Assembly: GCA_016839585.1 (NCBI GenBank)
Contig: JAEOTZ010000001.1
Span: 3,076 to 67,075, forward strand
DNA length: 64,000 nucleotides
From: Promethearchaeota archaeon
Lineage (GTDB): Archaea; Asgardarchaeota; Lokiarchaeia; Sigyniarchaeales; SOKP01
Reading direction: 5' to 3'
Below the pieces are notes generated by a model. It was not told the DNA's origin and made no database searches. It saw only the letters and a list, made by a program, of their open reading frames with translations. Positions 39,012 through 57,891 of this stretch are shown one piece after another (within the stretch, counting starts at the first letter, position 1; the number at the start of each line of letters is the position of its first letter). Both the position numbers and the translations under genes were made by a program.

Positions 39012-39407
39012 ATGAGTAGCAAAGATATGAAATGGGCAATTATTCACATCTTTTCGAGTTATAATAATACCATCGTGACTGCTACAGACCTTAGCGGAGC
39101 AGAAACCTTCGCAAAATGCTCTGGTGGCATGGTAGTAAAAGCTGACCGTGATGAAAGCAATCCCTACGCCGCAATGCAGTGCGGTTTCCGGGTCGCTAAT
39201 GAGCTCAAAGATAAAGGTGTTAGAGGGATACATATCAAAGTAAGAGCCCCCGGTGGTAATAAATCGCAAACTCCCGGTCCAGGTGCTCAAGCATGCATCC
39301 GTGCCCTCGCACGCTCCGGTCTACAAGTTGGAAGGATTGAAGAAGTTACACCTAAGTCGCATGACCACTGTAGAAGGAAGGGGGGCCATCGTGGTCGCCG
39401 TGTATAA
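39012..39407 (+). CDS. rps11: 30S ribosomal protein uS11
   Basis: [45 protein letters not shown] and the ...[11 protein letters not shown] tail. The antisense ORF 38967..39290 is spurious. Confidence 0.9.
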
Positions 39408-39448
39408 AAATCTCTGAGGAGATTATCTCTTTTAAAGATCTAGCGAAT

Positions 39449-39952
39449 CTATTCATTTGAATTTGATCTTTCTTTATTAGAGAACCTTTTAGTAAATTTT
39501 TCTTTCTGTTCATAATACCAATTTATATAATCATGCTGTCTTCTGTCTTCTTCACTTCCATGGGAAGGATACCAGATAAGATCTTTTTCTTGACACTCAA
39601 TACAATACCACGTCTCATGGAGGGGGATATATACCATATCTCTATCACTATGCGTGCATAGAGGGCACACACAAATAGATTTACTTAATGCACTGCGGAG
39701 CGAATGTTTTGTTCCTTCTAAATAGAACACTTCTTTCCGTTCTTCTGGAGTTAAATCTAGAATTGCACCGTATAGGCTAGAAAAAGTACTTAAAATATTA
39801 ATCTCATCATAAACAGCTCTTATTATAATTTCTCTAAGGTTATTTCTTATCTTTTTAAGTTGTTCATTGCGTATAATGACTCTTCGCTCATCTTTCATAA
39901 TTATAGTAAACCTATAGAAAAAAAAATATTTAAATAATGGGTCTTTGCTCAT
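39449..39952 (-). CDS. Hypothetical Cys-rich (zinc-finger-like) protein
   Basis: CVCPLC...H and WYCIEC motifs. The true start may be the internal MKDERR. Confidence 0.35.
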   Translation of the reverse strand: MSKDPLFKYFFFYRFTIIMKDERRVIIRNEQLKKIRNNLREIIIRAVYDEINILSTFSSLYGAILDLTPEERKEVFYLEGTKHSLRSALSKSICVCPLCTHSDRDMVYIPLHETWYCIECQEKDLIWYPSHGSEEDRRQHDYINWYYEQKEKFTKRFSNKERSNSNE

Positions 39953-39991
39953 CCTTTAAAATTAGAGAAAAGGTATGAAAAAAAAAAAAAT

Positions 39992-41593: not shown

Positions 41594-41898
41594 TTTATTA
41601 TCAACGTTTTTATTTTTTTTTCCATCCTTTGGGTTTTATCAGTCGCTATAATCGCGCAGACTGATGGGTAAGATTACAATAACGCGCAATCTTATAAAAT
41701 TAATATCAAAGTTTAATATATATATGTATTCCTCGAATAGACTGCTCTGTGAAGTTTAAATACTATTAAACTAGTTCATATTTAATTAAACCTCACTTTT
41801 CGTGTACACTTTTTAAATTTAGAAATCTTAGGTTTCGCTCGTTTTTATTACAAACAAGAAAAAGTGTAGTTTAAAAACTTTTAAACTGAAAAGTTATT

Positions 41899-42288
41899 GT
41901 GCTGTCAAAAAAGGAAATGAAGCAATTCTATCCTCATCTTATCTCGCGGATACTGTTATTTCTACGGCAACAGCGACATGTTAAAGGGGAGGTGCTTACA
42001 GAAGATCTTATTAAGAAGTTTAATAAATCGAAGAGTAGAATTTCTCAAGCTCTTTCTTTTTTAGCAAGTAAAGAATATATTGAGAGAAATTATGTTAATA
42101 ATTTTAATAATCAAGGATCCCGTCATAAGATTTCCCTTACTCCCAAGGGTTTAGAGATTACTGAAGCTATTCTAATGGAGGGATTAGATCCACTCGAGAA
42201 AAAGGTCATTGAAGCATTAAAAAACCGTTCTAATTATTTATGTAAAAATAAGGTGACTCCTACCGGGAACTCCCTACCTACGAGTTAA
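41899..42288 (+). CDS. Winged-helix (MarR/PadR-like) DNA-binding protein
   Basis: FNKSKSRISQALSFLASKEYIER looks like an HTH recognition helix followed by a wing. GTG start. Confidence 0.45.
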   Translation: MLSKKEMKQFYPHLISRILLFLRQQRHVKGEVLTEDLIKKFNKSKSRISQALSFLASKEYIERNYVNNFNNQGSRHKISLTPKGLEITEAILMEGLDPLEKKVIEALKNRSNYLCKNKVTPTGNSLPTS

Positions 42289-42389
42289 AATTATTATTAT
42301 TAATATTCATTTTTAAATTGGAATATTTCTTTTCAAGAATTTCTATAGTAGTGCCTTGGTTTTGTATTAGCTAATAGAAATTATTTATA

Positions 42390-43586
42390 TTATGACTCTA
42401 GATAATTAATTATCGAAGATATTATCTCAATTAAATCTAAATCAGAGGTAGAACTAAGTTGTTCTATTTTTAATCTTAATTTTCTAATAATAGGCAATTT
42501 ATCTTCTTCAATTTTAGTCGAATATAATAAATTCCTAAACATTTTTAGTGAATTTATATCTTTTTTATCTATTGCTTCACAAATCTCCGTAGAAATGCTC
42601 TCAAACTTTCCACATTTATATAAAATTAAAGCTATATCGTTTTTTTTATATCCCCTTTCATATAGCTTTTCGAAATTACTATAATTGATTTTTCTTATTA
42701 AACTTACAAGTTTAGGATTTAATACAATCATCCTGATAGTTCCTACAATTATTCTTATTATCTCATTATCTTTTCCTAAAATGTATTTATTTATAGTTTT
42801 AGCATAATCAGTTATTATATCAAGTTCATCTTCAAACATATCTTCTTTATATGAAATTTTCGCAAATTCATTGTGAATCTTATTTAACATTGGTATTAAA
42901 TTCATAGGAGATAATTGTGAATTCCTAATCATATCTAAATAATTAAAAATTAGTTCAAAATCGATTTTTTTCCTTTTTTGGGATCTTTCTTTCTCATTAA
43001 TATATAAATCTTCCTCTTCCTCTTCATCAATCATTCTAATGTAGTCACGTTCAATTATATTATTTGCACCTAATTTTTCATATCTTAGAGTGGCTTTTAA
43101 TTGAGCATAAATATTTCCTATTATACTTTCAACAGTTTTTTGTTCAGTTTCATCTAAATAACTATTATGAGCAATTTTATTTCTTAAATCATACAAATCT
43201 TCTAATTTTGATGTAATCCAAACTTCTTTAGGAAAATATTCTTTAAAGATTTCCCAATTGCTACTTATTATAGTTTTTAGATCTATTAAATCCGCGTAAA
43301 ATAGATCAGAATCCCCCCTTATAGATAACCATCTCTTAATTCTCTCTTCTTCTTTTCTATCATTAATTTTATCTTGAATTTTTTTATTCATATTTAGTTT
43401 TTTCCAATAATTTAAACCAAATTTAACCTTAGCTACATTTTCTATAAATAATCTGAAGAAATTCTCAAAAATGAAAAGATTATAATACGCCTCTACCATT
43501 TCTTTTCCTTTAAGGAAAATTTCAGTTGGTATTTCAATTTGAAACTTTTGTTTTAAATTCTTTTTTTTTATTAATTTTGGATTCAT
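42390..43586 (-). CDS. HEPN-domain protein (Swt1-like HEPN N-terminal domain plus unknown C-terminal half)
   Basis: FENFFRLFIENV helix and LRNKIAHN (R-x4-H) at about residue 155. Confidence 0.55.
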   Translation of the reverse strand: MNPKLIKKKNLKQKFQIEIPTEIFLKGKEMVEAYYNLFIFENFFRLFIENVAKVKFGLNYWKKLNMNKKIQDKINDRKEEERIKRWLSIRGDSDLFYADLIDLKTIISSNWEIFKEYFPKEVWITSKLEDLYDLRNKIAHNSYLDETEQKTVESIIGNIYAQLKATLRYEKLGANNIIERDYIRMIDEEEEEDLYINEKERSQKRKKIDFELIFNYLDMIRNSQLSPMNLIPMLNKIHNEFAKISYKEDMFEDELDIITDYAKTINKYILGKDNEIIRIIVGTIRMIVLNPKLVSLIRKINYSNFEKLYERGYKKNDIALILYKCGKFESISTEICEAIDKKDINSLKMFRNLLYSTKIEEDKLPIIRKLRLKIEQLSSTSDLDLIEIISSIINYLES

Positions 43587-43841
43587 AATTAGTTAATTCA
43601 AATTATAATTTTAAACAAATTGCTTTAAACAAATTGTAATGATTTATTAATGATTCATCAAAACTCAGTAACTTAATGCTTAATCCCATAATAATGTAAG
43701 TGTTTTATTAAGAGTAGTTTTTCCACACTTTGGACAATTTACATTATTAAATTTTTTTGTAAGATCCCAATCCATCATGCTAATATTTCTACTTCTACAA
43801 TCTGGACATGCATATTTTACTTATAAGAGGTTTCTTTTTTA

Positions 43842-44261
43842 TTAAAGATAATTAGTTATTTTATTATTAGTTTCTATGTCCTCTACATAGCGAAATGATT
43901 GTGGAGCATTAAAGTTGAGAAATATAGATTTAGGATCTATTGGGTTCTTGAAAAATTTTAGGTTAGAAATTTCTATAGCAAGTCCTTTTTCTTTTTGATT
44001 AAAATATTTGAAAAATTCAGCTTCACCAATCCCAGAAACATCCTTATATTTTTCCCATAATACCGTGGGGTGATCTTCGATAATGATATTTAATAAGAAT
44101 TTAGCTACGATTTTTTTCACTGGTGAGCTTGAATATATGTAAATCTTTTCAATTTTATCAAAATTCTTCTTATTACAAAATGATTTGCGAAACTCATATT
44201 TTTTTCTCCCTTTCTTTATTTCTTCTACATATTTCGGTTTAATTGAAAGTAAAACGTTCAT
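43842..44261 (-). CDS. ASCH (PUA-like) domain protein
   Basis: LSIKPKYVEEIKKGRKKYEFRK is the typical ASCH opening. Its own GGAGG SD lies 6 nt upstream, inside the preceding gene. The start overlaps the upstream stop by 23 nt. Confidence 0.6.
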   Translation of the reverse strand: MNVLLSIKPKYVEEIKKGRKKYEFRKSFCNKKNFDKIEKIYIYSSSPVKKIVAKFLLNIIIEDHPTVLWEKYKDVSGIGEAEFFKYFNQKEKGLAIEISNLKFFKNPIDPKSIFLNFNAPQSFRYVEDIETNNKITNYL

Positions 44262-45762
44262 TAATTCCTCCCTTTTCTTTAATAGATAAATACTTTTGAT
44301 GTTCTATCTCAGTAATCGATTGTGGACGTCCTTGAAGAATATTACTTTTTATCAATTCTTTATACGATATAGGATTTTTAAGATAGAAATGGTGGTTAAA
44401 TAATATTACTGTAATTGGCTTTTTTACTAATTTTTCTATTTCTGAAAGGGAATAAACTGTTCGCTTGCCAACTAAATTGAAAACATACTCTTTATTTGTT
44501 AGATCATATTCAACTTTCTCAACAACACCTAAAGAAACAAGTTCTTTCATATCTTTAGATCGATAGAAAAATACAATATCACCTGGAGCAATTTTTTTTG
44601 TTGAAGAATGAGTTAGATATGTTTTTCTTATCGTATTTCCTTCTATTAAAAATTCATTTAAAACTTCATTTATAGTTAGTTGTCCTCTTCTTGGAAAATC
44701 AGTAAACAAACGATTATGATATTTTGGTCTGATTGGAATTATGTGTTTTTTCACATTTTTCCCATCATAAAAATTAGGAAAATATATTTTTGAAATTTGA
44801 ACTGGTTCTATTGATTGGATCTCATCGTGGGAAATAAATAACTTTTTTACAAATACATCTTCAGGAATCTCAGACCATTCATGTTTAATGATTGCTTCTT
44901 TTTTAAAACCAAAATCTTCAATAAGAGCCACTAAAGGATCATTATCTTTGATAAAATGAGTTAGATATATCTCAGATCTATTATTTTTAAGGGCAAGGTT
45001 AATTGATAATTTAATGAATAACTCGCCAATTTTTTGACCAGTGTAAGAAACAACAATAGTAGCAATTTTTACTCTCTTCTTTTTTGGAAGTTTAGGTATA
45101 GATGCTATTTCCTCATTTTCAAATTTATAGATTAATACGGCTCCAAGCTTATTACCATTTCTATAATAAACCCAACAATTCCTACCATCTCTTGCTTTTT
45201 CATTAAACCAATCGTTAAATCTAGGATATTCTTCTCTCAAAATGTTAAAAATTGGGTCTAATACATTCAGACGAGACATTGATGTTGCTTTTAAAGCGTA
45301 TGGTCGTTTTATTTTTTCTTTAGGGATTTCTTTTTTAAAGAGACTAACCGCATCTAATATTGAGATAATTCTTTCAGAAAGGTCTAATTTTTTCGCTTTC
45401 TTATGTATTCCTATATCTTCTGTTACTAAGAAATTTACTGCATTATGATAAACAGCATATAAGAGATAATTATCTATTACATCATTAACATTTTTTGGCT
45501 TTCCTACAAGAGAAAGAAATTTTGAATTATCAGAAGGGTCGGGAAAATCTTCTAAAAGATTATAAGTCTTAAATTTCGAAAGCGTTATTTGTTTTCTCTT
45601 TTTATCTCGATCTCTATCAATATCTTCAATGGATTTTTGATGGAGGATGATTTTAATGTCTAATTGATTAAAAATTCTCATTAATATCTGTAGATCTTCA
45701 TCTATAATCTTGTTATCTTCTCTCCCAATAATGATATTTGTATCTAATAAAACTCTCATCAA
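44239..45762 (-). CDS. PIN - GNAT acetyltransferase - PUA-like (EVE/ASCH-like) three-domain fusion protein
   Basis: PIN: VLLDTNIII, DVIDNYLL, LVTEDIG. GNAT: IATIVVSYTGQKIGELFIKLSINLAL ... LIEDFGF. C-terminus: GDIVFFYRSKDMKELVSLGVVEKV, a PUA-like pattern. Confidence 0.6.
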   Translation of the reverse strand: MMRVLLDTNIIIGREDNKIIDEDLQILMRIFNQLDIKIILHQKSIEDIDRDRDKKRKQITLSKFKTYNLLEDFPDPSDNSKFLSLVGKPKNVNDVIDNYLLYAVYHNAVNFLVTEDIGIHKKAKKLDLSERIISILDAVSLFKKEIPKEKIKRPYALKATSMSRLNVLDPIFNILREEYPRFNDWFNEKARDGRNCWVYYRNGNKLGAVLIYKFENEEIASIPKLPKKKRVKIATIVVSYTGQKIGELFIKLSINLALKNNRSEIYLTHFIKDNDPLVALIEDFGFKKEAIIKHEWSEIPEDVFVKKLFISHDEIQSIEPVQISKIYFPNFYDGKNVKKHIIPIRPKYHNRLFTDFPRRGQLTINEVLNEFLIEGNTIRKTYLTHSSTKKIAPGDIVFFYRSKDMKELVSLGVVEKVEYDLTNKEYVFNLVGKRTVYSLSEIEKLVKKPITVILFNHHFYLKNPISYKELIKSNILQGRPQSITEIEHQKYLSIKEKGGINERFTFN

Positions 45763-46073
45763 ATACCCTTTTGACGTTTAAGATTTTTTCTTTTTAAATC
45801 AATTACTGAGCTTTTTTATTATATATTTAAATATGCGTTAAATTAATATTTAAATATTATGAGAATTTAATCAATTTTTTGAATTATTTAACGCAACTTG
45901 CCCAATGCTTACGACAAAAAAAGGATTTAACAAAATTAAGAAATAGTGGAGTATCATTTACAGAGGGATAATAAAGAAATCTCTATTTGTTAAAAAATAA
46001 GCCTATTAATTATTCCACTAGATTTAATTAAATTAAATGAAATTGAAAAAAAAAAAGGAATTAATTATTAATG

Positions 46074-46820
46074 TTAAAATTCTTTTCTTGGCTCATAATA
46101 TGTTTTCTCATAATCATAGTATTCAGAAATTTTATCCTTAAATCTAGGATATATTTCTATTAAATATTGGGTAAATTTTTGAAGATCTTCAGTAGAGGGG
46201 ACTTCTTCACGATTTATTATGTCATCTGCAAAGCGTTCTATTTTTTGAAGTAATCTTACATCATTATATTCAATAATTTTACAATAGTTTGTAAGCTCAA
46301 GGCTTTCTTTAAATTCATCAACAGAAGGATCAAGTATATCAGTTACATCAAAATAAAAACGTACTAATCTTTCATATACTTTATCCCAATATTCATAAAA
46401 TTGTTCAATCAACTGGGCATTTTTACCTAAATTCGTGAGAAATGGTTTTACAGGACGTTCGAATAATTTAGACAATAAGATTCTTGCTATAGAAGTATAG
46501 GCAAAAATTATGTCATACATAATTGGTTTCTTTTTTATTGAGTGATATACACCATTCCTTTTCGTATGAAATCTAGCAATATTATCAGTCATTTCTTTTG
46601 TTATATGTTGAGGTGCCTTCTCTCTAAAAATTTCAATTAATTTAGGGAATTTTATGAAATAATCAATATTGAGATATGTTCTTATGCAAAGTTCGACAGC
46701 ATTATCAATGTTAATCATAGCGATATGCAGATCAAATGGAGTCCCTTTTTCCATGTGGATTGTTCCATGTTTGATAAGTTTAATGATGTAATCAACGGGC
46801 TCGAAATCTGAATTACTCAT
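46074..46820 (-). CDS. HEPN-motif protein
   Basis: INIDNAVELCIRTYL helix and KRNGVYHS (R-x4-H). Confidence 0.45.
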   Translation of the reverse strand: MSNSDFEPVDYIIKLIKHGTIHMEKGTPFDLHIAMINIDNAVELCIRTYLNIDYFIKFPKLIEIFREKAPQHITKEMTDNIARFHTKRNGVYHSIKKKPIMYDIIFAYTSIARILLSKLFERPVKPFLTNLGKNAQLIEQFYEYWDKVYERLVRFYFDVTDILDPSVDEFKESLELTNYCKIIEYNDVRLLQKIERFADDIINREEVPSTEDLQKFTQYLIEIYPRFKDKISEYYDYEKTYYEPRKEF

Positions 46821-47101
46821 AATGAAAAAAATATCAAGTTTACTTCTTTCTTTACTTTATCTTTAAAAGGATTATTTATTTAAATTTTAACAATTTTTTT
46901 CATGTTATGCTGATGAGTCTTAGTTGAAGTAAAGTTAAATAAAAGCATATAAATTACATTTATTACATAATAATCAAAAAGAATTAAATAAATGAATGAT
47001 TTAAGGTCAAATACAGGGAAATATGGAAGATCTTAAATATATGGATTATTTATTTAAAGATAAGGTAAAATACAATTTATTAAAATCAAAAAGAGAAAAA
47101 A

Positions 47102-47662
47102 ATGGATAAAATATGGCAATTGCGATGGATGATTTCAATTATCTTGGTAATTATATCAATAATTATAGTTATATTCTCTGTATTTAATCTTTTCTTACTA
47201 TTGATAGTCCCTGTAATCTGGGCGCCTTCATTTTTTATTCTTGAGATGATGGTTATACCAAGATTCAAGGAGATTGAAGAGGAAGAGAAAAAAGGAGCTA
47301 TTGAACTTAAAAGATATGACCCTATAAAAAAAATCATAGAATTACTTGAAGAATATGAAGATCTAAAAGATGATGAAGTAAATGAAATTAAAACTACGCA
47401 AGAATTAGGCCAATTATTCCCTGAATTAATGTTAATAGGATTTGGGATGATTCGAGATACAATTAAAGATAATAATTATGAAATACATCTTACAAAAATT
47501 CCTTTTACAAAGCAATTTCTAATAAGACGTCTAAAATTAGGTAAGGAATTAGGACCTAAAGAAGTATATTATTCAAAAGGCTATTCCAGATTAGATTCAA
47601 ATGTTCAAGTATTAAACAATTTTATTGATTATCTTAAGGAAAGATTAGAGAAATTTCAGTAA
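47102..47662 (+). CDS. Membrane protein (two N-terminal TM helices) of unknown function
   Basis: ISIILVIISIIIVIFSVFNLFLLLIVPVIWAPSFFIL followed by a charged soluble domain. Confidence 0.4.
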   Translation: MDKIWQLRWMISIILVIISIIIVIFSVFNLFLLLIVPVIWAPSFFILEMMVIPRFKEIEEEEKKGAIELKRYDPIKKIIELLEEYEDLKDDEVNEIKTTQELGQLFPELMLIGFGMIRDTIKDNNYEIHLTKIPFTKQFLIRRLKLGKELGPKEVYYSKGYSRLDSNVQVLNNFIDYLKERLEKFQ

Positions 47663-48153
47663 ATTCAATGAAGCATAGGATATTGATATTATGCATTGCT
47701 TGATGATATAGCGGTTCTGCTTTGAATTGATTAAATCTTGCATCTATAAGTGTTATTTATCTTTAGAATTGTCAAATTAAATGTTAACTATTTTCCAAGA
47801 AGTTCTATTTTAACTATCTTATAAACATATGAGTTAAAATCTCTTTTCTTTTAAAATATTTTACAAAAATGTTCTTTTTACGACCATGGTTAATACCACA
47901 TTATTCAGTGCCATTATATTTGATACCCCATAAAAAATATTACTAAGATAAAAAAAAAATAAGGATTTATTTTTTAGTTAGAAAGTAAAGGATTTCATAC
48001 TATTCAAACTGAAAAGGGTACTTATATTACCTGACCAGATGACTAAATTTATTTAAAATCAAAAAAGTTACAATGAAACAAATAATAGGTAAAATACTTT
48101 AGAAAAATAATATTTATAGATTCTTTATAACATTCAATTGATATATAAAAAAT

Positions 48154-48624
48154 ATGAAAGAATGTTTTAGTATTTACATAGGTAACGATATGGATTGCTT
48201 TTGGGACGAAAGATATGGATGGTCTGTCGTGCATGCCTGCAAACACCCATGCCACTGTTACGCTGTAGGGTATAAGGGGAACCTACCCTCCACTCACCCG
48301 TCTTACTTAATATTTCGTCGAGAGTCCCATTTAGTTTTAAATTTAGTAGATATGGATCAACTGGATGACCGCTTTATGCGCCCTATCATAATGGCATTCT
48401 ATAGTTTCATGGATGAGATGGAAGGGCAAAAAATCCTAATACATTGTAATAGAGGTGAATCACGTGCACCGAGCCTAGCTATCCTCTATTTAGCAAAACG
48501 CAGAAAAAAGATCCCAGATGATTCTTTTGATGCTGCAAAACAATCTCTTAAAAAGATTTATCCTTTATATAATCCTGGACGAGGTTTTAATAAATATTTA
48601 CAGCAATATTGGGATTCTTTATAA
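48154..48624 (+). CDS. Cys-based protein phosphatase (dual-specificity/PTP-like, CX5R)
   Basis: HCNRGESRAPS is the HCX5R(S/T) P-loop. The gene is visibly GC-richer than its flanks. Confidence 0.65.
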   Translation: MKECFSIYIGNDMDCFWDERYGWSVVHACKHPCHCYAVGYKGNLPSTHPSYLIFRRESHLVLNLVDMDQLDDRFMRPIIMAFYSFMDEMEGQKILIHCNRGESRAPSLAILYLAKRRKKIPDDSFDAAKQSLKKIYPLYNPGRGFNKYLQQYWDSL

Positions 48625-48650
48625 AGTAAATACAATATAAATGATACTAT

Positions 48651-48674
48651 TTCCCTCCCCCGTGGTGCCCCCTC
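48651..48674. repeat. GC-rich 24-nt direct repeat, copy 1 (TTCCCTCCCCCGTGGTGCCCCCTC)
   Basis: Identical 24-mer at 49855-49878. Lies 45 nt 3' of the minus-strand gene 48719..49687 and 27 nt 3' of the plus-strand phosphatase gene. Confidence 0.9.
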
Positions 48675-48718
48675 ATGAAAAAGTAGTTTAAAAAATTTTA
48701 TATAATTTATATCATAAT

Positions 48719-49687
48719 TCACACCAATAGAGATTTGTAAATATAGCTCAGACTTTCTCGTATGATGGCATAGATTTTTTCTATATACTCAGTATTTATA
48801 TCTATACATTCTCCAATTCGAGATGGATCATATTCCAATTTCTTACATGATTTTTCGTTAATTATACCAGAATTATGAACAATAATATTTCGAATGTAAT
48901 TTGCTTCCCTTAACTCTCTCCAACTCTTAAAATCTCTTTTTAAATTAATATTAAATCTTGATATAATTCTTTTAGCGATTTTATCAATACTTTGATATCC
49001 CCACCAATCCACTTCATTATCGATCATTTTAATTAATAACTCTTCTCTTGTTTGAGAATCAATTATCTCCTTATTAGTAAGATTTTTTGAATTAGACCTT
49101 AGAAGTTCTGGTTTGTATTCATATATTTTCCTAAATAAATCTTTCAGACATGCTTCAAATAAGGAAAATTGATATACTAAAGTCATTTTAGCCAAATGAG
49201 TGATTCTTTTATGCAATTTATCCAAAAAATCGTTACAATTCCAATATATATATTCCCTTTGAGGTAATTTGAGAGTAGTTCTTCTACGTTCTTCATTCGA
49301 CTCAATGCCTTTTAATGATACTGAATAATCTCCTGCAATGATGAACTGATTAAATCCTTGAGATTTTGAATCTTCAATAAAATCCTCTACTTTTTTAAGA
49401 GTTTCTTCGTAACTTAGACAATCTTTGTCATTTTCTAAAATCTCAACAGGAATATATGAATCCCGTTGTCTTTTTTCATTACTTTGCATTGAAGTGAAAA
49501 ATTCCATTAATTCATTTAAATTAGAAGTTTTAGCTTTTTCTAACAATATTTTGTATTTTTCCTTATCTTTTTCTAATGAAATCCAAGCATTCCTTGAAGA
49601 TCTGAATGCATTCATCATATCGGTAAGATAATGGTTAATGATTATATTTAAATCATCCTTCAGAGAATCTCGCATAATCATAATCAC
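48719..49687 (-). CDS. HEPN-motif protein
   Basis: C-terminal domain with FSLFEACLKDLFRKI helix and IRNIIVHNSG (R-x4-H). Confidence 0.5.
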   Translation of the reverse strand: MIMIMRDSLKDDLNIIINHYLTDMMNAFRSSRNAWISLEKDKEKYKILLEKAKTSNLNELMEFFTSMQSNEKRQRDSYIPVEILENDKDCLSYEETLKKVEDFIEDSKSQGFNQFIIAGDYSVSLKGIESNEERRRTTLKLPQREYIYWNCNDFLDKLHKRITHLAKMTLVYQFSLFEACLKDLFRKIYEYKPELLRSNSKNLTNKEIIDSQTREELLIKMIDNEVDWWGYQSIDKIAKRIISRFNINLKRDFKSWRELREANYIRNIIVHNSGIINEKSCKKLEYDPSRIGECIDINTEYIEKIYAIIRESLSYIYKSLLV

Positions 49688-49854
49688 TTTTGGTATTGAT
49701 ATACAAGAGAGTTCCCATTCTATAAAAAGCTTTTGTCTTTTTATTTCACATCGAGATCCTATTCAAACTCATCTCGGAGTATTTTCTGTTACTGAGGATC
49801 TCTTTCCTTAAATGGTAGTTTTTCATTACCATTGTAGATGTAAAAAGTTTTACA

Positions 49855-49878
49855 TTCCCTCCCCCGTGGTGCCCCCTC
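49855..49878. repeat. GC-rich 24-nt direct repeat, copy 2
   Basis: Perfect match to 48651-48674. Lies 100 nt 3' of the minus-strand PIN gene and is preceded by an ATGTAAAA/TTTTACAT hairpin. Confidence 0.9.
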
Positions 49879-49977
49879 CTAAGTGCGAGGTGAACAATTA
49901 TTTTATTTCATAGTCTCTGGACTACTGGTTAAGATACTTCACAGCTTAACCTTCCTAATCAACGGCCTGGTAATAAC

Positions 49978-51276
49978 TTATTGAGAAATATTTATTATAA
50001 GCTTCTGATCTTTATTTACTCCCTCTTCATCGTGCTTAAATGAGCAGAAAAATTGTATTTTTTTCATTTTAAATTCTTCTGGAAACTTTATCATAATAGG
50101 ATATAAACCTAATGTAACATTATGTTGGATTTTTTTAATACTATATCCAAATACCCATATATCATTTTTCTCTTTTTCTATTTTTTCGGGAGAACTGTAT
50201 TTTACATTGTATTCTTTATGAGTAAATTGTGGTATAGTTAATGATGTGTATGGAAAAAAATCTCTCTCTATTTTTGGTTTTTCTGGTTTTTCAAGCTCTT
50301 CCTTGGATTTTAACTTAAAACCTTTTTCCAATATAGTAAATATTTCAATATTAACATTATTATATGGTTTATTGCCTTTATTTGTTAAAAATAATTCAAT
50401 TTCAATGTATTTCCTATGTTCATTCAATTCTTCATAATATTTTAAAACCTCTTCTTTAAAGTGTTTACGGCTTTTTAGATTAAATGATAATGGTGAAAGA
50501 AGTTTTGATGCGTTTGGTCCTAAACTATTAATCAAATCAGCAACAGTTAACCCTTTTTCTTCTGCTTCTTTAATTGTCATATTTTCAGATATTCCTGATT
50601 TTTCATTATCTTTTAAAGCTATTATCTCTTTTTCTTCCTCTTTCATTAAGTCTGGGAACGCTGGAAATTCCTCAGCAATGAATTCATCCAGGCTAAGCTC
50701 ATTCTCAGTAGATAATTCATACTTGTTATCTTTATTTTTAAAAAGTAGTTTTAAATCAGTTAATTTGCTTTTTCTTGCTGGTTGTGTTTCACTTGGTTTG
50801 AAAATTGTTTTATATTCCTCATCTAACCAAAAAATAGTATTAATTCCTAAAGCATCAGCTTGAAAGTAAGGCGTGTTATCTCCTGTTACAAAATATACTT
50901 CATCATCAGGATTGTTTTCTTTAAAGACGAGGATTTCAGCTATAATCTTGCAGTCAGATTCATTTTCATCTAATATTTCTACCCATTCAGGTTTTAAAGA
51001 ACTCCATTTTGTTGGAAAAAATGAAATATTTAAAGTAATACCTTCTTTAAATTCGACATCCTTTAATTCTCTTAATTTATTCTGTATGTTTCTGGCTTTT
51101 TTTTCGTATCTTTTTAAATTGTCCAACTCCTTATTAACCATATATGATACTACAATTACAATTTTATTATCATCCTGAGTTTCCTCAAATAAATTTCTCC
51201 AATCTATTTCTGTAAAGGTTTTACAGTGCAAAAAAACATTTGTATCAAGAAAAATATATTTAGTCATAATCATCAC
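49978..51276 (-). CDS. PIN-domain protein with long unknown C-terminal region
   Basis: YIFLDTNVFLH, NKELDN, DCKIIAEIL and YFVTGDN (the four acidic positions of PIN), followed by about 270 aa that were not recognised. Confidence 0.55.
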   Translation of the reverse strand: MMIMTKYIFLDTNVFLHCKTFTEIDWRNLFEETQDDNKIVIVVSYMVNKELDNLKRYEKKARNIQNKLRELKDVEFKEGITLNISFFPTKWSSLKPEWVEILDENESDCKIIAEILVFKENNPDDEVYFVTGDNTPYFQADALGINTIFWLDEEYKTIFKPSETQPARKSKLTDLKLLFKNKDNKYELSTENELSLDEFIAEEFPAFPDLMKEEEKEIIALKDNEKSGISENMTIKEAEEKGLTVADLINSLGPNASKLLSPLSFNLKSRKHFKEEVLKYYEELNEHRKYIEIELFLTNKGNKPYNNVNIEIFTILEKGFKLKSKEELEKPEKPKIERDFFPYTSLTIPQFTHKEYNVKYSSPEKIEKEKNDIWVFGYSIKKIQHNVTLGLYPIMIKFPEEFKMKKIQFFCSFKHDEEGVNKDQKLIINISQ

Positions 51277-51279
51277 TCT

Positions 51280-51432
51280 TTACTTAATTGTATATAGTCT
51301 CGATAGTCTTAAAACTTTTAATACAATAACAGAAAGATTTAATCCTGACAACTCAATATTTTTTATAATTTCTTCAAACAAATGTAAGGCTTCTTCTAAA
51401 TTTTTTTTACTCGGAGGTATATATCTATACAT
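51280..51432 (-). CDS. Small 50-aa ORF immediately upstream of the PIN gene (antitoxin-position candidate)
   Basis: Hand translation: MYRYIPPSKKNLEEALHLFEEIIKNIELSGLNLSVIVLKVLRLSRLYTIK. The stop lies 3 nt before the PIN GTG/ATG start. It is below the track's length cut-off. Confidence 0.3.
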   Translation of the reverse strand: MYRYIPPSKKNLEEALHLFEEIIKNIELSGLNLSVIVLKVLRLSRLYTIK

Positions 51433-51571
51433 TTTTATAATCCTAACTACTAATCTTCTTATTTTGTTTTTGCTTTACCCTGTAATAAACAAAACAGAAA
51501 TATATGCTTTTCCCCATTCTCTCTAAAAATTTGTGTCTCCTTCTTATGATCTTTGCTGTAAATGGGAATTT

Positions 51572-52342
51572 TTAACCTCCTAAAATAGTCTGGTCAGGAA
51601 AATCTTCTATTAGTTTTTTGTCAATACTATAAATGAATTCTGCAATATCTCTATAACAAGACTCTACTATTGATAAATCTATCTCTGGACCACTTAGAGA
51701 ACCTTTTGCACCACTGTGAATTATCTTATTTCTCAGTTTTCTATAGCTTGAGGGTTCATCTGAAAAAATTCTTTGCCATAAAGTGGGAAAAATAGTGGAT
51801 AAATCTATATTTAATAATTGAAACGCACATCTTACAATATCTTTTTCTTGAAAAGATAATTGAATATTTGGGGGCAACAGAGCGTATAATTTTACATTTC
51901 TCAGAAGATCAATATTGTCATAGTTTAATCTTATATTGACTCGTAGTTTTCCTATCCGTTTATTAAACCTTTCTACCACTCCTAACTCATTAAACCCGTT
52001 CTCTCCATAGCGAAGAAATAAATCTTCTAGAGTATTTATATAGGCTATTATCATAAATGCACTTCTTAGATAATCCTCAATTGCAGTTATTAAATTCACA
52101 ATGACATTTTCACATAAAAATGTGAATTTTATTGGATTACTTTCAGAATTTTGAATAATATCTGAATAGATCGAAAATACTCTATTAAAGTTTAAGACAA
52201 AATTAGGAAAAGCTAAAGTGTGTCTATCTTCAATTTTTTCATAGGTATAGAATAAAGATCCTTGTTTATGTTTTAATTCTGTTATTTTTACTATATTATA
52301 GTTTCTAAGAATATCTCGGAATCTATTTTCATCATTAATCAT
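51572..52342 (-). CDS. HEPN-motif protein
   Basis: LITAIEDYLRSAF helix and LRNKIIHSG (R-x4-H). Confidence 0.5.
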   Translation of the reverse strand: MINDENRFRDILRNYNIVKITELKHKQGSLFYTYEKIEDRHTLAFPNFVLNFNRVFSIYSDIIQNSESNPIKFTFLCENVIVNLITAIEDYLRSAFMIIAYINTLEDLFLRYGENGFNELGVVERFNKRIGKLRVNIRLNYDNIDLLRNVKLYALLPPNIQLSFQEKDIVRCAFQLLNIDLSTIFPTLWQRIFSDEPSSYRKLRNKIIHSGAKGSLSGPEIDLSIVESCYRDIAEFIYSIDKKLIEDFPDQTILGG

Positions 52343-52968
52343 AGAAGATCACTTCAATTTACAAATATATTTATTAGAATTACTTAATTGTTTGTTTATA
52401 TTTAAATTTATATTTAATTTCTGTCTTAACCAATAATAAACGCAACAGCAATATATTTTTATCCCTCTACTTACAACTTATGGAAAAACCATTCTAATGA
52501 TTTTTGCTCCTAATTAGGGGACAAATAGTTGTCCTCACAACAGCTGATGAAAATCTACTAATTAATTTGATGTTCATGTTCTTTTTGAAGATAATATCTG
52601 TTGCAAGTGTAGCATCATCGAGGATTTCCAGATTTTAATAATAATTGAAGTAGGATGGTATTTCAGCTGAAAAAATAATAATGCGTTATTAAATCAGCTT
52701 ATAGATATTATGAATAGCTTAAAAATTAATGCTAACCTAAAAAGGACATAAGAAAGACATAACAAATATAAGAATTAGAAATTGTACGTTAATTGGATTA
52801 CTTTTGGCAATAACTTTCAAATATTATTGATTAAGTAAAGAATAAGTTTTTTTAAATTTTACGGTTATTTCACGAAAAATATTGATAATAATATATAGAT
52901 AGACTGCAATTATATTAAAAAGGATATAAAAATGATGTTTAGTTGTTATTTCAATTCATAATTGAATT

Positions 52969-54435
52969 TTATTTTTCCCCATCTAAATCTTCATATAAAT
53001 CACTAAATTGTTCTAATGCTGTTTCTAAATCTTCTATTATATCTCTCGCAAGAACAACTGGATTTGGTAGATTCTCAAAATCTTCAAGACTCTCATCCTT
53101 AAGCCAAAAAATATCCAAATTTGTACTTTCCCTCTGTATTAATTCATCATAAGTAAAAACTTTAAACCTTTCAGTTTCTTTCCTCTCCCTTCGATTTTTA
53201 GGATAATAACATTTAATAAAATCTTTAAGATCTTCATAATTCATAGGATTTTGTTTTAAAGTAAAGTGCTTATTAGTTCTTAGGTCGTAAATCCAAAGAT
53301 TCTCGCTCCATGGTTCTTCACTTGCAGGTTTTCGATCAAAAAATAAAACATTAGCCTTAACTCCTGATGCATAAAATATGCCTGTAGGAAGTCTTAAGAG
53401 AGTGTGAACATCACATTCGTGAAGTAATTTTCTTCTAACAGTTTCCCCTGCTCCACCTTCAAATAATACATTATCTGGTAATACAATGGCAGCTTTTCCG
53501 TTTATTGCTAAAGTTGTTTTTACATGTTGAAGAAAATTCAGTTGTTTATTCGAGGTTGTTGCCCAGAAGTCAGGTCGTTCATAAACCAGAGATTGTTTAT
53601 CCGCTTTTCCCTCACTATTCATTATAGTAATACTACTTTTTTTACCAAATGGAGGATTAGTTAATACCATTTCAAAACGGTCTCCAGGATCAGCGCTAAG
53701 AGAATCACCTACTTCTATAGGGCTTTCTTCACCCCCGATTCCATGTAGATAAAGATTCATGACACACAGTCTAGCAACACCGTCAACAATATCTTTTCCG
53801 AAAAGAGTGTTAAATTTAAGATTTTTTTTCTGTTCTTTATCTAAATTATAAATTTTAGAAATATAATCATGAGCAGCTAAAAGAAACCCTCCAGTTCCAC
53901 AAGCAGGATCATATATTTTCATTTCGAGTTCAGGTTGCATTACTTCAACAATCGTTTTTATGAGGGATCGTGGTGTAAAGTATTGTCCTGCTCCACTTTT
54001 ACTATCCTCGGCATTTTTTTGTAATAGTCCCTCATAAATATCACCTTTCACATCAATATCCAATCCAACCCATGTTTCTTCATTTATAAGCATAATTAGA
54101 CGTTTGAGCTTAGCCGGATCTTGAATTTTATTCTGTGCTTTGCGAAAAATTATTCCAAGCATCCCCTTTTGCTTGCCAAGTTCTATAAGAATATGACGAT
54201 AATGAACTTCTAATGCATCACCATCCCTTTCGAGCAAGCTTTGCCAATCCAACCCAGGAATTATTATTGAAGATTTGTTAAAAGGAGGTTTTGTTTGTTC
54301 ATCAGCCATTTTTAAGAATATTAGATATGTCAGTTGCTCAACATAATCTCCGTAGCTTACTCCATCATCTCTTAAAACATTGCAATAGTTCCATACTTTA
54401 TCTACTATTATAGAACTTTTATTCAACATACTCAC
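52969..54435 (-). CDS. hsdM: Type I restriction-modification system, N6-adenine DNA methyltransferase subunit
   Basis: HsdM N-terminal domain, DPACGTGGFL (motif I), NPPFGKK (motif IV). Confidence 0.9.
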   Translation of the reverse strand: MSMLNKSSIIVDKVWNYCNVLRDDGVSYGDYVEQLTYLIFLKMADEQTKPPFNKSSIIIPGLDWQSLLERDGDALEVHYRHILIELGKQKGMLGIIFRKAQNKIQDPAKLKRLIMLINEETWVGLDIDVKGDIYEGLLQKNAEDSKSGAGQYFTPRSLIKTIVEVMQPELEMKIYDPACGTGGFLLAAHDYISKIYNLDKEQKKNLKFNTLFGKDIVDGVARLCVMNLYLHGIGGEESPIEVGDSLSADPGDRFEMVLTNPPFGKKSSITIMNSEGKADKQSLVYERPDFWATTSNKQLNFLQHVKTTLAINGKAAIVLPDNVLFEGGAGETVRRKLLHECDVHTLLRLPTGIFYASGVKANVLFFDRKPASEEPWSENLWIYDLRTNKHFTLKQNPMNYEDLKDFIKCYYPKNRRERKETERFKVFTYDELIQRESTNLDIFWLKDESLEDFENLPNPVVLARDIIEDLETALEQFSDLYEDLDGEK

Positions 54436-55141
54436 CTAAATTCTTTTGTTTTGATTCTCGATTTTGGTTTTTTTTTTGAGAAGCCTTTTTATTTAAATTA
54501 TTATTTACAGGATTTTCATTATCCTGTAATTGGGAAATTAAATTTCCTTCAAATGCGGATTTTAAAATGCTTTGGCGTAACTTATCTGATTTTTTAATTA
54601 TTGATTTAAACAAATTCACCCCATAATCTAATTTAGTGAACACTTCTTCAATTTTTTCTACTATAATGCGTTGTTCATTAATAGAAGGTATAGGAATTGG
54701 AATTAGTTTCATTCTAGTCTGATTTAATTTATATCTAGTAGTGCCTGTAATATAATCTCTGTAGTTAAATACATTTAGATAATGAAGTAAAAAGGAATTT
54801 AATAAAACACCTTTTATTGCTTTTAATACATGAGCATGGTTATTTACCCAAGTCTTTCCTCTAATCATATATGCTTTGGGTTTAGATGGATCTAAAAAAG
54901 GAGCTCCATCTTCGCCTAATAATATTAGTTCTTCATCAAATATAAAATCATCAATCCATCCTATTTGTCCAGTCGCACCATAATATGGATAAAGTTCAGT
55001 AATATCTTTTCCAGCGATTCTGTCATTTCTATCAGAGGAATTAATGGGAACTCGTTGACTATCTAGAATCTCAACACAATCTTTTAATTTCATCCATTCC
55101 CAATGAGATGGTAAGTCTGCCAAAGATGTCAATTCAGTCAA
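54419..55141 (-). CDS. hsdS: Type I R-M specificity subunit, half-size (single target-recognition domain)
   Basis: 240 aa. One TRD (WEWMKLKDC...YPYYGATG...) plus one conserved helical region (INEQRIIVEKIEE). Overlaps hsdR by 4 nt and hsdM by 17 nt. Confidence 0.8.
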   Translation of the reverse strand: MTELTSLADLPSHWEWMKLKDCVEILDSQRVPINSSDRNDRIAGKDITELYPYYGATGQIGWIDDFIFDEELILLGEDGAPFLDPSKPKAYMIRGKTWVNNHAHVLKAIKGVLLNSFLLHYLNVFNYRDYITGTTRYKLNQTRMKLIPIPIPSINEQRIIVEKIEEVFTKLDYGVNLFKSIIKKSDKLRQSILKSAFEGNLISQLQDNENPVNNNLNKKASQKKNQNRESKQKNLGEYVE

Positions 55142-57891
55142 ACAGAAAGTACCTCATTTAATTCGTCTAAAATATAAATAAGTTCTTGCTTAAAAAGTTG
55201 ATAAGCTCTAAATGGTCCACCCTTCTCATAGAACGGAGCTAATTCAAAATCATCCATTTCAATTTTTAGACTACTAGTAATATGATCTTTTATCATATTT
55301 AGCCATTCTAATTGTTCAGATGTGAAATTTTTACCCATACTTAGTTGAATATCCAACCATTCATTAAAGTTCCTATTAATCGTTTCATAATAAGGTTCAA
55401 GAATTTCACTTTCACCTAAAGTAAATCGAATGATTGATATTATATTTGTTAACAATTTTTGCGGTCCGGCATTTCTTACTTTTGATTTTTCCAATTGTTC
55501 ATAAGCTTGCCATAACTGTTCAGTTGTAAAATTGTAAGGGGGTTTTTCGATTGATTCACTTAATTCCTTAATTTGTTCATAAGTAAGATGTCTTTTACCA
55601 TATGGTTGATTAAAAATGATTTGTAGAGCAGTAATCTCATCCTTATTCTCTTCAATAAATTTTTTAAATGTATCTATAAAGGTTTGAGCTTTCTCTTTAG
55701 CTTGAGGGTCCCAGCTAGCAAAAATTGTTTTATCTATACTTATTTTATCCAGCACTTGTTCATTTTTCTTCTTTATTTCAATTAAGAAATTTCTTAAATT
55801 AGGATTATCAAAAGGTTTACATGCGGATTCTTTCAATTCATTCGAAACTTCTTCTTTTTGTTCTTCTGAAGGAGTTTCAGTTTGAAATTTTTCCTTTGCC
55901 CTTTCATTTATGATATCAGGATCGAGAGCATCAAATATATTATTAGTCATTTCCTGTAATGTAATTCCTCCTGAAATTTCCTCAATTTTTTCTCGGTCAT
56001 TTGATTCTAGTGTGCGATCTAGCCTTGCGAGACGATTTGAAAGAGTCAAAATTGTATCTTCGTCTCGTACACCAACAGCTACTTGTTGTAGTAATTTATC
56101 AAAAGGAACACTTGGTTTTCGTTCTAGAGGTCTTGAGTCAGTTTTATCGCCTTCACACACTCCAACAGCATCTACAATTACAAAATGGGTTTTATTTTTT
56201 ACGTTAGGAGTAACAGCTTGTAAATCTGTAGAGGATATAACCCGAGTTCCTCTACCTTTCATTTGTTCGAAATATACTCTTGATTTAACATTTCTCATAA
56301 ATAAAAGGCATTCTACGGGTTTAATATCTGTACCAGTAGAAATCATATCTACAGTTACAACAATTCGAGGGTTATAAGAGTTTCGGAATAATGCAATTAA
56401 ATTTTCAGGTTTTTCACCAGTGGTTTTATAAGTAATTTTTTCGCAAAATTTGTTTCCTTTTCCAAAGATTTCTCGTGTAATTCTTACAATGTCTTCTGCA
56501 TGTGAATCATCTTTTGCAAAAATAATTGTTTTAGGAACAGTATTTCTTCCCGGAAAAATTTGCGTAAACAAATTATCTTTAAATGTTCTTATGACTGTCC
56601 TTATTTGGTCAACTGCCACAACATCTCTATCTAATTGTTTTGCTTCATATTCATAGTCATCATCTAATTGTTCCCATCTAACGCTTCGTGTTAATTTGTC
56701 TCTTTTATCAATGTAATATCCTGCTTCGATTCTACTACCTTTTTCTGTGATTTCCGTTTGTATTCTGAACACGTCATAACCCACATTAATTCCATCTGCT
56801 ACAGCTCTTTCATGGCTATATTCCATTACTAAATTTTGATTAAAGAATCCAAGAGTCTGTTTTGAGGGGGTGGCGGTTAATCCAATAATAAAAGCATCAA
56901 AATATTCCAGAACTTGACGCCATAAGTTATATATCGAACGATGACACTCATCAGTAATTATAAAATCAAATGTTTCAATAGGTATATTAGGATTATAGCT
57001 TATTTCTTTAGGCTTATCATCCTTAGGAGCTATTTCATACAACGACTTTTCTTCAAGTTCTTCATCAATCTCAGGTTCATTTTTTAACATGGAATAAAGT
57101 CGTTGAATTGTAGTAATACAGACTCGACTTACGGGATCAAACACGTTTGAGGTTAGATGCTGGATATTGTAAAGTTCTGTAAATTTTCTTCCATCATCAG
57201 GTGTAATATACTGTTCGAATTCTCTTTTTGTTTGTCTTGCTAAATTATTCCTATCTACAAGAAATAGAACTCGTTTCGCATTAGCAAACTTAATTAGTCT
57301 ATATACAAAACTCACTGATGTAAAAGTTTTTCCACTTCCGGTTGCCATTTGGATTAATGATTTTGGTTCATTTTGAGCTAGAGATTTTTCAAGATTCTTT
57401 ATAGCTTTAATCTGAGGATCCCATAATCTTTCTTCAATAAGAGTGGGCAATTCTCTAAGTCTAGCTCTTAAAGTTTCATATTTTTTAGCCCATTTATATA
57501 AAGTTTCAGGGGTGTGAAATGAAAATACCCTTCTACTTCGATGATCTGGGTCCCTCATATCTCTGAAAAAAGTCTCAGTTCCCGTACTTTCATAACCAAA
57601 AGGGAGTGGTACTCCAATTTTAGCATAATTTTCGGGAACTCCATGCAGATATTTATCAGTTTGTATTTCCACACCACTTAATGTAGTTCCTTCTGGTTTT
57701 GCTTCAACAGCACCCGCAAGCTTTCGGTCAATAAAAAGTAAATAATCAGCAAATCCAGTCTCCAGTGGGAATTCTCTTACAGCGATTCCTAAAGAAGCTC
57801 CTAAATTAATTTGATTATAATCCTGAACAACCCAATCCGCTTGTTCTAATAAATGATCAATTTTTTTCCGCGCGCTTTCTTCAGGTCTCAT
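55138..57891 (-). CDS. hsdR: Type I restriction enzyme R subunit (EcoEI-like C-terminal domain)
   Basis: N-terminal PD-(D/E)xK-like ADYLLFIDRKLAGAVEAK, Walker A MATGSGKTFT, DEAH-type ITDECHRS, helicase C-terminal motifs. Confidence 0.9.
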   Translation of the reverse strand: MRPEESARKKIDHLLEQADWVVQDYNQINLGASLGIAVREFPLETGFADYLLFIDRKLAGAVEAKPEGTTLSGVEIQTDKYLHGVPENYAKIGVPLPFGYESTGTETFFRDMRDPDHRSRRVFSFHTPETLYKWAKKYETLRARLRELPTLIEERLWDPQIKAIKNLEKSLAQNEPKSLIQMATGSGKTFTSVSFVYRLIKFANAKRVLFLVDRNNLARQTKREFEQYITPDDGRKFTELYNIQHLTSNVFDPVSRVCITTIQRLYSMLKNEPEIDEELEEKSLYEIAPKDDKPKEISYNPNIPIETFDFIITDECHRSIYNLWRQVLEYFDAFIIGLTATPSKQTLGFFNQNLVMEYSHERAVADGINVGYDVFRIQTEITEKGSRIEAGYYIDKRDKLTRSVRWEQLDDDYEYEAKQLDRDVVAVDQIRTVIRTFKDNLFTQIFPGRNTVPKTIIFAKDDSHAEDIVRITREIFGKGNKFCEKITYKTTGEKPENLIALFRNSYNPRIVVTVDMISTGTDIKPVECLLFMRNVKSRVYFEQMKGRGTRVISSTDLQAVTPNVKNKTHFVIVDAVGVCEGDKTDSRPLERKPSVPFDKLLQQVAVGVRDEDTILTLSNRLARLDRTLESNDREKIEEISGGITLQEMTNNIFDALDPDIINERAKEKFQTETPSEEQKEEVSNELKESACKPFDNPNLRNFLIEIKKKNEQVLDKISIDKTIFASWDPQAKEKAQTFIDTFKKFIEENKDEITALQIIFNQPYGKRHLTYEQIKELSESIEKPPYNFTTEQLWQAYEQLEKSKVRNAGPQKLLTNIISIIRFTLGESEILEPYYETINRNFNEWLDIQLSMGKNFTSEQLEWLNMIKDHITSSLKIEMDDFELAPFYEKGGPFRAYQLFKQELIYILDELNEVLSV

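Follow-up and report, generated by a model that had tools for sequence, protein, structure and literature searches.

Four probable solo HEPN proteins in a Lokiarchaeal defence island, and a conserved intergenic element at the borders of candidate cassettes

Introduction

HEPN domains are four-helix up-down bundles that carry an Rx4-6H motif, with a polar residue after the arginine, at the end of helix 3; an upstream conserved acidic residue, often as part of Ex3[KR], is a further trait, and the remaining sequence is poorly conserved (PMC3710099). The proteins usually homodimerise, and Cas13 pairs two HEPN domains intramolecularly (PMC12165695). HEPN families are generally linked to restriction-modification (R-M) systems, and those of the Abi2/Swt1, RiboL-PSP, AbiJ and AbiU2 types are typically solo or embedded among R-M and defence genes (PMC3710099). 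Some, the AbiD/F-type HEPNs, have been reported beside a non-coding RNA, RF03085 (PMC12165695). Here we describe four minus-strand genes, P1 to P4, that occupy a 10-kb stretch of Lokiarchaeal DNA (the window in what follows is the whole stretch analysed, 64,000 nt of contig JAEOTZ010000001.1 from a Promethearchaeota archaeon). An earlier reading of this DNA, the original prediction, had presented them as an array of stand-alone HEPN effectors with differing extra domains, a description that the motifs, families and varied homologue contexts reported below support. All four open reading frames (ORFs) were found at the coordinates and with the lengths that it had given:

P1, 42390..43586, minus strand: 398 aa; predicted N-terminal Swt1/Abi2-like HEPN (about aa 12-157) followed by a C-terminal region of about 240 aa
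P2, 46074..46820, minus strand: 248 aa; predicted tandem HEPN with a degenerate C-terminal copy
P3, 48719..49687, minus strand: 322 aa; coiled-coil N-terminus and a C-terminal all-helical probable HEPN
P4, 51572..52342, minus strand: 256 aa; RiboL-PSP-like probable HEPN

We regard it as probable that these genes encode four independently acquired, single-gene Abi-type HEPN endoribonucleases from four HEPN lineages, brought together in a Lokiarchaeal defence island.

P1 resembles the Abi2/Swt1 clade (AbiD/AbiF-like; PF18731; PDC-M34B) in its Ex3R and RNxxxH motifs and in standing alone in a defence and R-M neighbourhood. It differs from that clade in its extra C-terminal region, and neither PDC-M34A, among 20 neighbouring proteins, nor RF03085, over 39-59 kb, was detected. 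P4 aligns with nearly the whole profile of the RiboL-PSP-HEPN family (PF18735; Anantharaman et al. 2013), which distant relatives of P3 also match, and the motif is kept. However, all scores (24-26 bits) fall under the 28.4 bits set for that profile, neither of the features behind the family name, fusion to an L-PSP endoribonuclease and a ParB operon (PMC3710099), is present, and the family has been described as bacterial whereas the hosts of P3 and P4 are archaeal.

With Cas13 and other two-HEPN proteins the P2 family shares a possible intramolecular composite site, about half of its aligned members keeping R[NHS]xxxH in both halves. Unlike Cas13, P2 has just 248 aa, no CRISPR array, no CRISPR RNA-binding lobes and no detected Cas13 similarity, and the second HEPN of the window's P2 and of its closest relatives is without R and H. 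HepT-MntA modules belong to the same catalytic superfamily, and the P2 model superposes on HepT (7bxo, 5yep, 6m6w) and on AF_0298 (2hsb). In contrast to these modules, no nucleotidyltransferase gene is adjacent, P1-P4 are larger and have extra domains, and sequence similarity to HepT is at noise level. At the prr locus, a HEPN RNase is kept latent by a type I R-M enzyme. P4 recalls this arrangement in that it directly follows a type I hsdR-hsdS-hsdM operon on the same strand; unlike PrrC and other anticodon nucleases embedded in R-M systems, it lacks a PrrC-type ABC-ATPase domain, is parted from hsdM by a 626-nt spacer and a cassette boundary, and has homologues elsewhere that are without R-M neighbours.

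Results

HEPN-type motifs in four families

The R-N-x3-H motifs reported earlier for the four proteins proved exact (P1 R135-N-K-I-A-H140, P2 R88-N-G-V-Y-H93, P3 R266-N-I-I-V-H271 and P4 R204-N-K-I-I-H209), as did the upstream helices FENFF, DNAVEL, FEACLKDL and AIEDYL. Inside each of these helices is an Ex3[KR]: E41/R45 in P1, E43/R47 in P2, E178/K182 in P3 and E89/R93 in P4. When every six-frame ORF of 90 aa or more in the window is counted (19,960 aa), RNxxxH occurs four times where composition predicts about 0.9, and each of P1-P4 (1,224 aa together; 0.055 expected) holds one of these occurrences. The pattern in these proteins is above chance. Both sequence hallmarks of HEPN, Rx4-6H with a polar residue after the arginine (here R-N-x3-H, kept across homologues) and the upstream acidic Ex3[KR], are present in all four families. 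Loss of the R and H positions among homologues had been named as an observation that would count against HEPN identity; instead, both residues are invariant in every family.

The four proteins had also been called unrelated-looking, and our comparisons agree. Their best pairwise BLASTP match has E=0.065, the profile-profile alignments cover the motif region only, and the best cross-family profile pair, P3-P4, reaches E ~1e-3 with 22% probability. Uniting P1-P4 as one family was considered and rejected, because cross-family profile alignments reach only the motif. None of the four matched NCBIfam or PHROGs, and sequence searches of the PDB, with single sequences and with the four family profiles, returned nothing significant.

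Two of the checks suggested with the original prediction held in part. Profile searches against HEPN families gave a match of P1 to Swt1 and of P4 to RiboL-PSP, both under the Pfam cut-off, and none for P3 itself; structure prediction gave a P2 model that matches HEPN structures and a P3 model with no HEPN match in the PDB. Changing R, N and H to alanine in silico was enough to abolish both Pfam matches, and the motifs therefore align to the catalytic columns of the profiles. Taking this with the family evidence below, we consider P1 and P2 each almost certain to be a HEPN, and P3 and P4 each very likely to be one.

P1 and its homologues

P1 matches Pfam HEPN_Swt1 (PF18731) at E=7e-6 and 26.7 bits, narrowly below the curated cut-off, and its residues 12-157 match PADLOC PDC-M34B at E=6e-30; this strong second match supports homology despite the near miss of the first. 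By tblastn and a genome scan, homologues were found in a Methanotrichaceae metagenome-assembled genome, on a Sphaerospermopsis plasmid and on Halobacterium pNRC100, at 23-45% identity over the best matched segments. The 2013 HEPN survey places a Halobacterium VNG-numbered protein in the Abi2/Swt1 clade (PMC3710099), which may or may not be the pNRC100 match. E41, R45, R135 and H140 are invariant in the P1 alignment (4 sequences, 23-42% identity). For the C-terminal 240 or so residues, no family was detectable. The assignment of P1 as a Swt1/Abi2-like HEPN followed by a domain without a detectable family is well supported at the level of sequence. In the Methanotrichaceae homologue, the HEPN is C-terminal and comes after a 595-aa ORF that we read as putatively DUF262/GmrSD-like.

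P2, a predicted tandem HEPN

A word-index homologue search with P2 returned P2 itself as the sole match, and an exhaustive HMMER search found 153 cluster representatives at E<1e-3. D39, E43, R88, N89 and H93 are invariant across 43 aligned family sequences that share about 25-30% identity; at position +4 after E43, the window's P2 has R47 and the family consensus has K. Family members weakly match six Pfam families, none above cut-off: RiboL-PSP, HepT, Swt1, MAE_28990, Apea and DUF4145. The last of these we take to be HEPN-like, and the other five are named HEPN or HepT.

The AF2 model of P2 (pLDDT 91.6) is all-helical. Helix 75-93 ends in the motif and leads into a loop, and the long helix that precedes it carries the acidic residue, in agreement with the published HEPN description (PMC3710099). 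Foldseek matched the model to a HEPN structure, 2hsb (prob 0.99, TMt 0.62), to HepT 7bxo (prob 0.95), and to 5yep, 6m6w and 1ylm; the compact matches with low root-mean-square deviation (rmsd) are HEPN or HepT structures only. A HEPN fold for P2 is well supported by this modelling.

The N-terminal and C-terminal halves of P2 align with each other (hhalign probability 91%, E=9e-7), and a second, C-terminal R[NHS]xxxH is present in 23 of 42 homologues, as RNxxxH in 21 of the 23. The window's P2 and its nearest relatives are without this second motif and have A198, D199 and N203 at its positions; because R and H are lost, the C-terminal half would be a pseudo-HEPN. From these alignments, the family is a predicted tandem HEPN that arose by internal duplication, and it is without a Pfam model.

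P3 and P4

In 16 P3 homologues (24-94% identity), E178, R266, N267, H271 and N272 are invariant and K182 is at least 90% conserved. The AF2 model (pLDDT 83.6) opens with long helices and a small beta-hairpin unit (aa 9-141); in the all-helical C-terminal domain (about aa 143-322), the motif stands at the end of helix 256-272, before a loop. Scanning metagenomes for the C-terminal domain gave 14 relatives with identities of 19-35%. Within the resulting wider alignment of 15 sequences, five match HEPN_RiboL-PSP (best 1.5e-4), one matches Cthe_2314 HEPN and one Swt1. The wider P3 profile aligns with the P4 family profile over 63 columns around the motif (hhalign, E ~1e-3), and P3 matches PADLOC RTasHEPN at E=0.012. 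No relatives of the P3 family were found in IMG/VR. Through its distant relatives, P3 is a probable HEPN tied to the RiboL-PSP group.

P4 matches Pfam HEPN_RiboL-PSP (PF18735) directly, at E=3e-5 and a sub-threshold 24.4 bits, over profile positions 14-190 of 191. E89, R93, R204 and H209 are invariant in its 14 homologues (70-88% identity), and we read P4 as a probable RiboL-PSP-like HEPN.

A different reading is that P3, P4 or both are not HEPN RNases, their R-N-x3-H lying in an unrelated helical fold with a role in binding or regulation, such that only P1 and P2 are true HEPNs. It would account for the absence of a HEPN match for P3 itself in Pfam and for its model in Foldseek searches of the PDB, for the P4 score under the Pfam cut-off and its dependence on the motif, and for the low profile-profile probabilities. 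We nevertheless judge this reading improbable, given that Ex3[KR] and RNxxxH(N/S) are jointly invariant in both families and that the P4 match spans 177 of the 191 profile positions. Moreover, the five distant P3 relatives match RiboL-PSP-HEPN independently and others match two further HEPN models, the P3 and P4 profiles align across those 63 columns, and the P3 model is helical with its motif at a helix end and then a loop, as in HEPN.

Solo genes behind their own spacers

No MNT partner had been seen for any of the four genes, and no nucleotidyltransferase domain was found in any gene scanned with Pfam at 36-63 kb. The missing MNT is no anomaly, because Abi-type HEPN families of these kinds are typically solo (PMC3710099). 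Each gene does sit behind its own spacer, as had been described, with upstream spacers of 255 nt (P1), 281 nt (P2), 290 nt (P3) and 626 nt (P4).

The P1-P4 gene order recurs in four Logan contigs from four sequencing runs, with P2 identical, which we take to be the same population. Elsewhere, the surroundings of homologues are varied and often defence-type (pAgo, GmrSD_C, Schlafen/AlbA_2, DUF4209-type HEPN, GIY-YIG). P3 homologues neighbour PHP, TnpB-like and SIR2 genes, or an XPG/5'-3' exonuclease-type (FEN-like) gene, or pAgo; P4 homologues neighbour unrelated ORFs; and P2 homologues are monocistronic, or lie beside GmrSD_C, or between Schlafen/AlbA_2 and a DUF4209-type HEPN. No conserved partner gene was found for P2, P3 or P4 homologues in the neighbourhoods examined; in BLASTP, proteins encoded beside the P3 and P4 homologues resembled neither one another nor the neighbours in the window. 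Because the homologue contexts are unrelated and the neighbours are without similarity, we read the four genes as independent single-gene modules.

The original prediction had pointed to the spacers as a place to look for small unannotated ORFs or antisense RNAs. Such a partner would make P1-P4 the toxins of toxin-antitoxin pairs (type I, type III or an unusual type II), with antitoxins encoded in the 250-600-nt spacers. The search was productive for ORFs, with ORFs of 22-33 aa in every spacer and a 50-aa ORF after P4; one of the small ORFs, 32 aa long and 94 nt upstream of P1 (43680-43778, minus strand), encodes a CPKCG zinc-knuckle motif. It yielded no RNA: cmscan of positions 39,000-59,000 against Rfam at E<=1 matched no family, and this includes RF03085, whose reported place beside AbiD/F-type HEPNs (PMC12165695) would otherwise favour an RNA partner. 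As for the ORFs, all except the 50-aa one are uncalled by gene callers in contigs of the same organism, those beside P3 and P4 homologues have no similarity to those of the window, and ORFs of 20-30 aa are expected by chance in AT-rich DNA. The conserved part of the spacer upstream of P3 is a nucleotide-level, promoter-like sequence bounded by a repeat, with no ORF. We accordingly see little chance that hidden antitoxins accompany these genes.

A perfect palindrome, ATGGTA-N9-TACCAT, lies upstream of P3 at 49812-49832 and is largely kept upstream of the P3 orthologues in two related contigs, L008 and L014 (with one arm substitution in L014). It may be a putative regulator-binding site.

A conserved element at cassette borders

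P3 is enclosed by a perfect direct repeat of a 24-nt GC-rich core, TTCCCTCCCCCGTGGTGCCCCCTC, of which there are two copies in the 64 kb and none in 100 shuffles. The core sits within an intergenic element of about 110 nt. With 0-4 mismatches it recurs in other Lokiarchaeal contigs (designated here by L numbers), in constant orientation relative to the HEPN homologue that orients each locus. The copies are as follows:

49855..49878, plus strand: 24-nt core that closes the P3 cassette on its upstream side, with the P3 start 168 nt downstream and the stop of a PIN_4 gene 100 nt upstream
48651..48674, plus strand: 24-nt core, second perfect copy, which closes the P3 cassette on its downstream side, 45 nt beyond the P3 stop
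51460..51569, plus strand: full-length element (about 110 nt) whose GC core has decayed, located between P4 and the unit of the 50-aa and PIN_4 genes; nhmmer E=2e-19, a partly circular value as this copy is among the 8 that make up the profile
52412..52465, plus strand: weak partial copy limited to the AT-rich half, where P4-cassette homology ends on its upstream side; nhmmer E=0.004
L014, 148-171 and 1481-1504: copies that bracket the P3 orthologue
L008, 9798-9821: copy upstream of the P3 orthologue
L038, 6838-6861, 8190-8300 and 10130-10153: copies upstream of the P4 homologue and again after GIY-YIG and 437-aa genes
L040, 12947-12970 and 13972-13995: copies that bracket another gene
L018, 5500-5523: one copy

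Nucleotide identity of 95-96% between the window and L014/L008 spans 48686/48694 to 49880/49882, and the flanks beyond are unrelated. These limits coincide with the repeat, and homology therefore stops at the 24-nt core. For P4, cassette homology spans 51541-52464 and, with L036, L038 and L040, ends at 52460-52464; the element copy at 51460-51569 has independent support from blastn to the L038 elements (81-84% identity). P3 and P4 at least thus appear to be exchangeable modules that end at a conserved GC-rich intergenic element. In two of the related contigs, adjacent cassettes hold further genes: a PIWI/PAZ Argonaute directly after the P3 cassette in L014 (1633-3924) and, in L038 (8387-10012), a small GIY-YIG protein and a 437-aa protein with a C-terminal RRAIVH (Rx4H) motif.

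In gene-sense orientation, the AT-rich half of the element lies 30-70 nt upstream of start codons and has a TATA-like sequence. The element may act as a portable promoter or terminator and, in addition, as a substrate for recombination. An attC-like hairpin was rejected, the element forming none and folding no better than shuffled sequence (z-scores -1.8 to +1.1), and a viral origin of the 24-nt core was set aside when no exact match was found in IMG/VR. The element matched nothing in Rfam, and no recombinase or integrase domain was found among the ORFs scanned in 39-64 kb.

There are parallels with integron cassettes and attC sites: single-gene co-oriented units, a recurring element of constant orientation, and homology between genomes that stops at the element. 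The element here differs from attC sites in that its primary sequence is conserved and it forms no hairpin; no integrase is among the ORFs scanned in 39-64 kb, and the cassettes carry their own promoter-like sequence. We put forward, as a tentative idea and one that we think unlikely on present grounds, that HEPN genes, and nuclease and defence genes of related genomes, travel as single-gene cassettes, with the TTCCCTCCCCCGTGGTGCCCCCTC element as the recombination site of an undescribed cassette-shuffling mechanism that builds the defence islands of Lokiarchaeia and is integron-like in function and different in mechanism.

The island and its other genes

The 10-kb stretch is part of a Lokiarchaeal (Asgard) defence island. 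Host DNA has about 30% GC, with a dip to 24-27% over 42-48 kb, the P1-P2 part of the island; elsewhere in the window GC is 30-33%, for most of it outside 18-32 kb. The low GC across 42-48 kb is consistent with horizontally acquired DNA. A tRNA gene, sought as a sign of an integrated element, was not found in the 64-kb window. The window's ribosomal protein S11 belongs to a 90%-identity cluster in which the named members are Promethearchaeota/Lokiarchaeota metagenome-assembled genomes, and related contigs encode Arf/Ras/Roc GTPases; both agree with an Asgard host. The other genes of the island include:

43842..45762, minus strand: complete PDC-M11 candidate defence pair (PADLOC PDC-M11A E=8e-145, PDC-M11B E=5e-48; Pfam)
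49978..51432, minus strand: separate unit between P4 and P3 with the 50-aa ORF and a 432-aa PIN_4 protein (PIN_4 at 49978-51276; Pfam PIN_4 E=2e-12)
52969..57891, minus strand: type I R-M operon hsdR, hsdS, hsdM, immediately upstream of P4 (Pfam N6_Mtase 1e-70, Methylase_S 1e-16, ResIII/EcoEI_R_C)
58056-59078, beyond the R-M operon: GIY-YIG and DUF4357 protein, PDC-S14-like (PDC-S14 E=2e-45)
61614-63374, beyond the R-M operon: HerA/FtsK-like ATPase with a C-terminal zinc ribbon

Within the PDC-M11 pair, A (507 aa) combines PIN and GNAT with a weak EVE-like match at its C-terminus and overlaps B (139 aa), which is ASCH-like. The 50-aa ORF and PIN_4 unit is not kept beside P4 or P3 homologues. 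Convergent with P1 is a gene for a 129-aa winged-helix protein (41899-42288, plus strand) that resembles Csa3/CARF-associated regulators (PADLOC CARF3--CARF_TM E=4e-6; NCBIfam Lrs14/ArsR-like) and could be a local regulator. PDC systems are candidates named through guilt by embedding and are unvalidated (PMC12988326), and a literature search on PDC-M34 and PDC-M11 returned nothing informative.

It is very improbable that P1-P4 and the PIN, GNAT and phosphatase genes make up one co-operating, operon-like, multi-component system: the four genes do share a strand within 10 kb, interleaved with PIN, GNAT and PIN_4 genes in an arrangement repeated in four sequencing runs, yet the four contigs with that arrangement and an identical P2 are taken as the same population, P2, P3 and P4 homologues elsewhere occur singly in unrelated contexts, the PIN-GNAT gene with which joint action had been proposed belongs with ASCH to a recognised separate candidate system, PDC-M11, and spacers of 255-626 nt and cassette boundaries favour separate units.

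Discussion

Our preferred reading of the locus as four independently acquired single-gene HEPN endoribonucleases has several points against it. P1, at 26.7 bits, is 0.8 bits under the HEPN_Swt1 gathering cut-off of 27.5, and P4 (24.4 bits) and its homologues (24.9-25.7 bits) are under the HEPN_RiboL-PSP cut-off of 28.4; because both matches vanish in the R/N/H mutants, this Pfam evidence is not independent of the motif. Conservation in the P4 family is a weak test because the homologues are all at least 70% identical, and R/H conservation in the wider P3 alignment is partly circular because the pattern used for recruitment contained the motif. The full-length P3 model matched no HEPN structure in the PDB by Foldseek. 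Its one significant structural match (E=1.4e-4, rmsd 2.6 Å over 160 columns) came from BFVD and is A0A8S5NVI2, a Siphoviridae protein that is itself uncharacterised; this hints that phages or prophages carry the domain too. The PDC-M34 candidate system consists of two genes, and no match to PDC-M34A was obtained among the 20 neighbouring proteins scanned; the PDC annotations are themselves unvalidated candidates (PMC12988326). Finally, RNase activity, toxicity and anti-viral function are, for all four proteins, properties that we infer.

From HEPN biology, each of P1-P4 would be expected to act as a metal-independent RNase, with an active site formed by homodimerisation that joins two Rx4H motifs. 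P2 could instead pair its HEPN and pseudo-HEPN within one chain, or dimerise via the N-terminal domain. Latency would most plausibly be intrinsic, with no antitoxin, and might come from the accessory regions: the tail of P1, the coiled-coil/beta unit of P3 or the pseudo-HEPN of P2. In this model, infection would trigger activation; RNA of the cell or the virus would then be cleaved and growth arrested, an abortive infection. Each gene would have its separate spacer because it is its own transcription unit or cassette.

As we read them, P1-P4 are further solo HEPN RNases of the Abi type, from a defence island of an Asgard archaeon, and two of the families (P2 and P3) are without a Pfam model. 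The HEPN array itself is an incremental finding, because solo Abi-type HEPN RNases in defence islands are well known. It does enlarge the defence repertoire known from Asgard archaea, which is poorly charted, by HEPN lineages that existing models cover little or not at all, among them a predicted tandem-HEPN family of more than 150 representative clusters. As a probable natural HEPN/pseudo-HEPN tandem, P2 bears on the origin of two-HEPN enzymes such as Cas13.

The boundary element is the more unusual part of the locus and may matter more than the HEPN genes. The P3 and P4 cassettes illustrate how such an island could be assembled, from exchangeable units that end at a conserved GC-rich element. 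If that element is a recombination site, it would represent a new means by which defence genes move in the prokaryotes most closely related to eukaryotes.

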